From: Escherichia coli
GTDB taxonomy: Bacteria; Pseudomonadota; Gammaproteobacteria; Enterobacterales; Enterobacteriaceae
Strand: one strand, 5' to 3'
NCBI RefSeq assembly: GCF_003334405.1
Contig: NZ_QOWM01000034.1
Length of the DNA stretch: 3,454 nucleotides
Both the position numbers and the translations under genes were made by a program. The notes beneath the pieces are model-generated. The model was not told the DNA's origin, ran no database searches, and saw nothing but the letters and a program-made list of their open reading frames with translations. The number at the start of each line of letters is the position of its first letter. Position 1 is the first letter of the stretch. This document shows positions 2,060 through 2,133 of this stretch, piece after piece.

Positions 2060-2133
2060 ATCACAGTGACATACACTAATGTACATCATTATGAAATACA
2101 TTAGTGTGAAACAATCAGATTAGAAGGTACATC
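2060..2133. repeat. Second iteron/palindrome block between parA and the downstream gene; candidate second partition site or operator
   Basis: TCACAGTGACATACA (2061-2075) matches the upstream TCACTGTGACATACA (1388-1402). GTACATCAT at 2081-2089 and again at 2128-2136, where it overlaps the ATG at 2134. Inverted repeat CACTAATGTA (2074-2083) / TACATTAGTG (2097-2106). Possible promoter GTGACA (2066-2071), 18 nt, TATGAA (2090-2095). Confidence 0.55.

Follow-up and report, generated by a model that had tools for sequence, protein, structure and literature searches.

Among described partition systems, the closest precedent for a binding site between a ParA-type ATPase gene and its partner gene appears, by analogy, to be parS2/Pω of pSM19035. 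On this Streptococcus pyogenes plasmid the ω protein binds arrays upstream of copS, of δ (the ParA) and of ω itself, which act as promoters/operators and also as parS sites (PMC2441792, PMC9499535); parS1 corresponds to Pδ, parS2 to Pω, upstream of ω, and parS3 to PcopS (PMC2441792). The par2 locus of pB171 has the order parC1-parA-parB-parC2 (PMC4270457). This type Ib system has two centromere sites bound by one small ParB; the second of them follows parB, and the parA and parB genes overlap (by 7 bp in the pB171-like locus L016). In TP228, parH and the operator are built of tetramer boxes and are known only from the region before parF, which is closely followed by parG. The operators of Arc and CopG consist of paired half-sites about 11 bp apart that are bound by a dimer of dimers; they serve single phage or plasmid repressors, with no periodic array and no ParA ATPase. 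In the literature searched we found no description of a partition centromere for IncX4, IncX3 or IncI2 plasmids, and for IncX6 one study reports that ParB and parC 'could be not located' (PMC5868456). The colistin-resistance gene mcr-1 travels mainly on IncX4 and IncI2 plasmids (PMC8725589), and blaNDM-5 is found on IncX3 plasmids (PMC12317039).

Here we have analysed a 3454-bp stretch of DNA (the window) that corresponds to the maintenance region of an IncX4-type conjugative plasmid. Its par genes are matched by ~320 IncX4 plasmids at 95-99% identity (E. coli, Salmonella and Klebsiella), and a query spanning 1240-2410, the spacer between parA and its partner gene included, is at least 80% covered in 323 of the 326 IncX4-type records found. 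The annotated IncX4 gene order runs topB-hha-hns ... dqlB, ATPase, small ribbon-helix-helix protein, variable genes, DUF2726 and replication initiator, the ATPase gene being annotated 'MipZ' or 'P-loop NTPase' in the matching records. The features needed for comparison with the systems above are these:

1258-1401, plus strand: main array of six palindromic units, starting at 1258, 1283, 1308, 1333, 1358 and 1383, with an exact 25-bp pitch
1306-1334, plus strand: parA promoter-like site, TTGTAA-17-TATAGT, found by consensus scan within units 3 and 4 of the main array
1412-2059, plus strand: parA, encoding a small Walker-type, ParF-like, type Ib partition ATPase of 215 aa
2056-2074, plus strand: internal unit 1, GTAAATCACAGTGACATAC, 0 mismatches
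2073-2107, no strand assigned: extended palindrome centred on 2090, consisting of internal unit 2 and its flanks
2081-2099, plus strand: internal unit 2, GTACATCATTATGAAATAC, 0 mismatches, 25 bp after unit 1
2127-2134, plus strand: lone half-site, GTACATCA, overlapping the ATG of the partner gene
2134-2403, plus strand: partner gene, encoding a predicted ribbon-helix-helix centromere-binding protein of 89 aa

The surroundings of the cassette show several features of their own. Rfam finds no known RNA family in the spacer; its one hit in the window is the AgrB antisense RNA (RF02891) at 294-381 (-), with 62 bits and E = 2.4e-09, and miRNA-like matches on the upstream array are far under the gathering thresholds and reflect its palindromes. 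The AgrB RNA lies near a DinQ-like toxin gene, dqlB (a name taken from the annotation of matching plasmids), the pair being placed at 294-381 (-) and 656-751 (+); an AgrB/dqlB-type type I toxin-antitoxin module has recently been shown to stabilise IncX3 plasmids (PMC12317039). On the other side, similarity to the classic mcr-1 IncX4 plasmids ends directly after the partner stop codon (window 2404-3230 differs), and the window has two ORFs there, both lacking a family match: one of 71 aa that is hydrophobic (2428-2643) and one of 117 aa whose N-terminal segment is hydrophobic (2856-3209). Since pKP13 has DUF2806, mcr-1 and pap2 at this point, the region 3' of the partner looks like a cargo-insertion hotspot of the backbone. 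Two GC-rich, terminator-like hairpins, GCCCGCCCGTACGGGCGG at 1106-1128 (-), upstream of the main array, and AAAGCCCGAAAGGGCTTTT at ~3211-3232, after the 117-aa ORF, look as if they insulate the par cassette.

The ATPase has the hallmarks of a type Ib ParA: it carries the deviant Walker A motif KGGTGKS, has no N-terminal DNA-binding domain, and finds its best solved relative in ParF of TP228 (4dzz, 206 aa, E = 2.5e-11). It matches the NCBIfam model ParA_partition at E = 3.8e-32, with a score (111.5 bits) under the curated equivalog cut-off of 180. The partner is predicted to be a ribbon-helix-helix protein from several lines of evidence, each individually weak. Pfam RHH_1 matches residues 37-70 weakly (E = 0.0037), and the AlphaFold2 model (mean pLDDT 72.7; 46-57 for residues 1-30 and 72-91 from residue 31) has CopG, ParD, CdbA and Arc as its top Foldseek matches, with ParG lower in the list (the CopG match has a probability of 0.96-0.97 and a TM of 0.76, all E-values being above 0.2); partner homologues adjoin ParA in the IncX3, IncX1-like, IncI2 and Providencia loci, and a search of the partner sequence against the PDB found nothing meaningful. 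As the ATPase is ParF-like and a small, predicted ribbon-helix-helix protein is encoded downstream of it, the cassette is best classed as type Ib, ParF/ParG-like, and its upstream repeat array (1258-1401) overlaps the predicted operon promoter (1306-1334), a feature of such cassettes. In this it resembles TP228, whose repeats upstream of the ATPase gene likewise overlap the promoter and whose ParG has a flexible tail where the partner model has a low-confidence N-terminal one; unlike TP228, the IncX4 cassette has a 74-bp spacer with two full units.

All short motifs of the region reduce to one 19-bp palindromic unit, GTAnnTCA-nnn-TGAnnTAC. A pattern scan for GTANNTCANNNTGANNTAC with at most one mismatch returns eight matches in the window against 0.01 expected, all eight confined to 1258-1401 or 2056-2099; the 8-mers GTAMATCA (nine matches against 0.32 expected) and GAMATACA (eight against 0.35) are over-represented as well. 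Four separate 8-bp box types (GTACATCA, GTAAATCA, GACATACA and GAAATACA) were dropped as candidates, being two orientations of a single half-site in the palindrome. Across 32 units the consensus reads GTAnATCAnnnTGACATACA; conservation is as good in the spacer units as in the upstream ones. The main array is presumed to be centromere plus operator. Isolated exact half-sites (GTAAATCA) also occur at 1449-1456 and 3234-3241 (- strand). The first is inside parA, 66 bp past the end of the main array and not in its 25-bp register, the second near the 3' end of the window; both are probably chance matches.

The second iteron site that a sequence-only reading had placed between parA and its partner is genuine, and it had been under-described: the 74-bp spacer (2060-2133, 31% GC, the length first given) is entered by two full units. 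The first base of internal unit 1 immediately precedes the parA stop codon, and TAA (2057-2059) therefore falls within the unit, in GTAAATCA. The iteron copy originally noticed at 2061-2075 (TCACAGTGACATACA), which shares 14 of its 15 bases with 1388-1402, is part of a longer match with 19 identities in 20 (2056-2075 versus 1383-1402), and the 10-bp inverted repeat holds up as well, 2074-2083 (CACTAATGTA) being the perfect reverse complement of 2097-2106; it is contained in the extended palindrome. We rejected the idea that the spacer pair is a copy of one particular upstream pair; as every register gives 33-39 identities in 51, no specific upstream paralogue can be named. GTACATCAT does occur twice, at 2081-2089 and across the partner ATG (2134-2136), although the second copy sits at 2127-2135 and not, as first reported, at 2128-2136. 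From that copy it had been proposed that the partner is autoregulated at its translation start. The sequence does not support this. A DNA-binding protein would act on transcription, not translation, and what overlaps the ATG is one half-site by itself, 46 bp beyond unit 2 and off the register, which is present in L008 and L019 and absent in L017, L018 and L020. The idea of a conserved operator on the ATG was rejected for this absence, and the lone half-site is probably not a conserved functional element.

To follow these elements across close relatives, we compared the window's own lineage (L001), classic mcr-1 IncX4 (pKP13, L008) and metagenomic relatives (L017, L018 and L020). L019 and L020 have frameshifts in the partner gene, and parA of L019 was not called, so both were used for DNA motifs only; the partner start of L020 was reassigned by eye to 3059. 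The six-unit register of the main array recurs in L008, L017 and L020, and L017, L018 and L020 share the full plan of six upstream units (where the contig reaches) and two units from the parA stop codon. Internal unit 1 lies on the parA stop codon in L001, L008, L017, L018 and L020; L019 has a one-base deletion in it. Against the window, L008 shows 13 differences in 1257-1382 and three in the spacer, with only eight in the 648-bp parA, and by our mapping 15 of the 16 array substitutions relative to classic IncX4 fall on linker, central nnn or NN positions. The more distant L017 and L020, whose ParA is 84% and 87% identical to that of the window, retain 22 of 24 and 24 of 24 core positions of the two spacer units (92-100%) and 17 of 26 and 18 of 26 non-core positions (65-69%). 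Since the cores are kept to this extent where third codon positions of parA are only 42% (L017) and 51% (L020) identical, the spacer units are under purifying selection.

Two loci depart from this plan by insertion. L018 (726-1166) has an extra 102-aa ORF between parA and partner, with a unit pair before each gene; L010 (1852-2555) has two small membrane-like ORFs there, with a palindrome before each gene. In L007 and L010 a palindrome also lies directly after the partner stop.

Beyond these relatives, loci whose ParA is 36-41% identical to that of the window have gaps between parA and partner of 73 bp (IncI2, L004), 243 bp (Providencia, L005), 99 bp (IncX1-like, L006), 99 bp (IncX3, L009) and 93 bp (L007, a second par type on IncX4-typed plasmids). 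They have iterons of their own (TGTAAAG/CTTTACA in L004, L006 and L009; GTGTATnnTTACAC-type palindromes in L007; GTAMATAC in L005), and each repeats its own upstream iteron in its spacer; in each locus, the 7-mers common to spacer and upstream region exceed those of all same-length coding-sequence controls. When the spacers of eight loci are set against their upstream regions in a cross-matrix, three iteron-specificity groups emerge and each spacer holds the iteron of its own group; the internal site thus co-varies with the upstream iterons. An internal site is found in 10 of the 11 related loci examined that have a readable junction. Because even distant loci repeat their own iteron both upstream and in the spacer, we consider the internal site a selected trait of the clade and no oddity, albeit a dispensable one within the family, since L003 (ParA 45% identical) has a 2-bp gap and does without it.

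Homologues with ParA identity of 34% or less have overlapping genes (Acinetobacter, Moraxella, Pseudomonas and two pB171-like loci next to parM). The expectation that parA and its partner are tightly linked is therefore right for type Ib systems generally, and the spaced, iteron-bearing layout is the rule in the window's own clade; likewise, the internal position is unusual when measured against type Ib at large, these five distant homologues included, but not within that ParA clade. Two further layouts were observed. A Klebsiella plasmid (L014, ParA 30% identical) carries TATCTTGT repeats on both sides of its operon (1000-1200 and 2127-2200), several of them before it and about nine directly after the partner gene, a pB171-like flanking arrangement. 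In the 243-bp Providencia spacer (L005, 2155-2397), a short ORF with a hydrophobic product (MPENKYLYILILFIAVGIMLFADKLFF) is followed by an AT-rich stem of 13 perfectly paired bp (AAAGTATTCATAC / GTATGAATACTTT); iteron copies come next, one of them directly adjoining the ATG of the partner gene.

How far does this locus follow the described multi-site systems? Like pSM19035, it combines a small Walker ParA (δ there) with a ribbon-helix-helix centromere-binding protein (ω there, predicted here), and it has separate short-repeat arrays, one before the ATPase gene and one (2056-2074 and 2081-2099) between that gene and the gene for the binding protein, which would likewise serve both as centromere and as operator. 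IncX4 plasmids also have three clusters: in pKP13 (33,309 bp), units with at most one mismatch occur only within 2.2 kb around par, as a pair at 21454/21479 (whose first unit has two mismatches), the six-unit array and the two internal units. The third cluster lies ~1.3 kb upstream of the main array, in pKP13 (L021) as two units 25 bp apart at 21454-21497, just after an IS26 insertion, and in L001 as a single unit (2983-3001) just after the hns stop, ending at position 1 of the window (window 1-10); the partner protein may bind this third cluster too. The differences from pSM19035 are as clear. The ω sites are 7-10 unspaced 7-bp heptads (WATCACW), and the IncX4 units are 19-bp palindromes with a 25-bp pitch, in arrays of six and two; contiguous WATCACW heptads are absent, the ATCAC core appearing in only some half-sites of GTAnATCAnnnTGACATACA units. 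Pω is a mapped promoter, and the spacer in the window has no convincing one. ω also controls copy number and a toxin-antitoxin operon, unlike the IncX4 units, which in pKP13 lie only around par; on this confinement we rejected plasmid-wide regulation by the partner, of the kind exerted by ω or KorB. Finally, the host phyla differ, pSM19035 being a Firmicute plasmid and IncX4 enterobacterial.

The likeness to pB171 par2, which is also type Ib, extends to the repeats of the pB171-like L016 (TGAAATCACA and TGAATTCACA), which resemble IncX4 half-sites. In pB171, however, the second site lies outside the operon, as the sequence-only reading had noted and in keeping with both the published order (PMC4270457) and L016, with its overlapping genes. 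The IncX4 second site is internal: the pattern scan finds no unit downstream of the partner (2404-3454), and the genes are separated by the 74-bp gap.

Promoter predictions separate the two intergenic regions. In L008, L017 and L020 the parA promoter site reads TTGTAA-17-TATAGT, TAAAGT or TACAGT, and the hexamers of TTGTAA-17-TAnAGT (position-weight score 11.2) are kept in all four lineages. In 2060-2133, by contrast, the consensus scan finds no sigma-70-like promoter; the best candidate, TGGAAC-17-TACACT, lies partly in parA coding sequence and scores 7.1, no better than shuffles (p = 0.33), and the best spacer scores of the window, L008 and L017 compare with shuffles at p = 0.25-0.79. No spacer hexamer pair was found conserved across the window, L017, L018 and L020. 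The proposal that the partner gene has its own promoter thus fares poorly in the window, where a weak, operator-covered internal promoter is possible but gains no support from the sequence. A search for a terminator after parA was negative for the window, L007, L008 and L009. As the spacer has neither a terminator nor a conserved promoter, parA and its partner are most likely co-transcribed.

Taken with the conserved unit architecture, these observations suggest that the spacer is very probably a site of protein binding, a putative second docking site for the small partition protein. On balance, we lean slightly towards a reading in which it forms a second partner-binding array inside a co-transcribed operon, as part of a split centromere/operator that damps transcription into the partner gene. 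Partner dimers would bind the half-sites GTAnnTCA, of which the two spacer units offer four. Because the centres of the two half-sites in a unit are 11 bp apart, roughly one turn of the helix, each unit could take a dimer of dimers; this spacing fits the binding mode of Arc and CopG, which are among the best structural matches of the partner model. The six-unit array would then act as the main centromere and as the operator repressing the operon, and the internal array as a second loading point, so that the partition complex may bracket parA as a split centromere. When occupied, the internal array would block RNA polymerase entering the partner cistron (or would cover a weak promoter), which would add negative feedback on the partner and tune the ParA:partner ratio.

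Alternatively, the partner gene may be served by a separate, Pω-like promoter in the spacer, to which the units act as operator, giving two autoregulated transcription units and a site that may double as centromere; we regard this as possible, if rather unlikely. It has a direct precedent in the ω gene of pSM19035, whose own ω-repressed promoter is parS2 (PMC2441792), and some alleles contain weak or allele-specific candidates. The spacer of classic IncX4 (L008) contains GTGACA-18-CATGAT across both units, which passes the consensus scan, and the spacers of the IncX1-like and IncX3 (L009) loci contain TTGTAA-17-TATGAT, whose score of 10.6 is above that of any upstream candidate in those loci. 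Furthermore, because a site precedes each ORF inserted between parA and partner in L018 and L010, that layout fits promoter-operator modules better than a roadblock. Against this, the window's own unit pair creates GTGACA-18-TATGAA, whose -10 version escapes the scan, the hexamers at this position are poor in L017, L018 and L020, and the shuffle comparisons and the lack of any hexamer pair conserved alongside the parA promoter, given above, weigh the same way.

A broader form of the co-transcribed-array reading would make the ParF-like systems of IncX1-like, IncX3, IncX4 and IncI2 plasmids a distinct class, with a centromere that is obligatorily divided by the ATPase gene and an internal array that, as a roadblock or by looping to the main array, is needed for partition and par-mediated incompatibility and sets the ParA:partner ratio. 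Its layout would comprise a main array at the promoter and a two-unit array from the parA stop codon, joined in IncX4 by a third cluster after hns. We think this generalisation unlikely; if true, split-centromere roadblocking or looping would add to proteobacterial type Ib systems a mode of control that has not been described for them.

A further explanation concerns the extended palindrome itself, whose 17-nt arms (2073-2089 and 2091-2107) match at 15 of 17 positions. It might fold in the mRNA or extrude as a cruciform and so set the stability, processing or expression of the cistrons, alone or besides a protein site, which we consider improbable. The RNA of 2050-2140 folds at -20.4 kcal/mol (z = -2.55) with 2073-2107 as its stem, and six of 21 predicted pairs keep pairing through two-sided changes, in a comparison of six partly redundant sequences; the flanks read ACTAAT/ATTAGT in the window, AATAAT/ATTATT in L020 and ATAACC/GGTTAT in L018. 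L017 shows a symmetric ATA...TAT variant; its lack of the extended flanks counts against the hairpin. The stem has no U-run behind it, so it is not an intrinsic terminator, and the ribosome-binding site remains free. A similar extended palindrome surrounds upstream unit 2 (1275-1309), which, being upstream of the predicted parA promoter, is probably untranscribed. Palindrome symmetry can also be maintained by template-switch mutation without selection.

Units were seen to change symmetrically from GTA...TAC to ATA...TAT (L017 1879-1897; L018 1114-1132; window 1275-1309 and 2073-2107). Together with the co-varying flanks, this suggests either selection for a hairpin or cruciform or template-switch correction of quasi-palindromes; maintenance of symmetry at the DNA level, by protein binding or by template-switch correction, is more likely than an RNA role. 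The flanks may hint at a hairpin role, one that the binding-array model does not need.

The last explanation holds that the spacer units have no function, being either the relic of an accidental copy of some of the upstream array or a resemblance that arose by chance where the DNA is AT-rich. It can point to the low GC content of the spacer and to L003, which does without the site, but it is strongly disfavoured by the chance expectation of 0.01 matches, by the retention of both units with their cores 92-100% identical while synonymous sites approach saturation, by the presence of an internal site in all three iteron-specificity groups and by the coverage of the region in nearly all IncX4-type records.

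Returning to the reading we favour, a second partner-binding array within a co-transcribed par operon, the analysis defines the IncX4 centromere/operator in testable terms, as 19-bp palindromic units repeated with a 25-bp pitch, six of them upstream of parA and two internal, to which one or two units after hns, just left of the window, are added. If the internal site tunes the ParA:partner ratio or serves segregation, it would provide a handle for par-based incompatibility typing and plasmid curing, and it would help to explain how protein balance is kept in small type Ib systems. Rather than a new kind of system, this would extend the multi-parS logic of the Firmicute plasmid pSM19035 to enterobacterial resistance plasmids.
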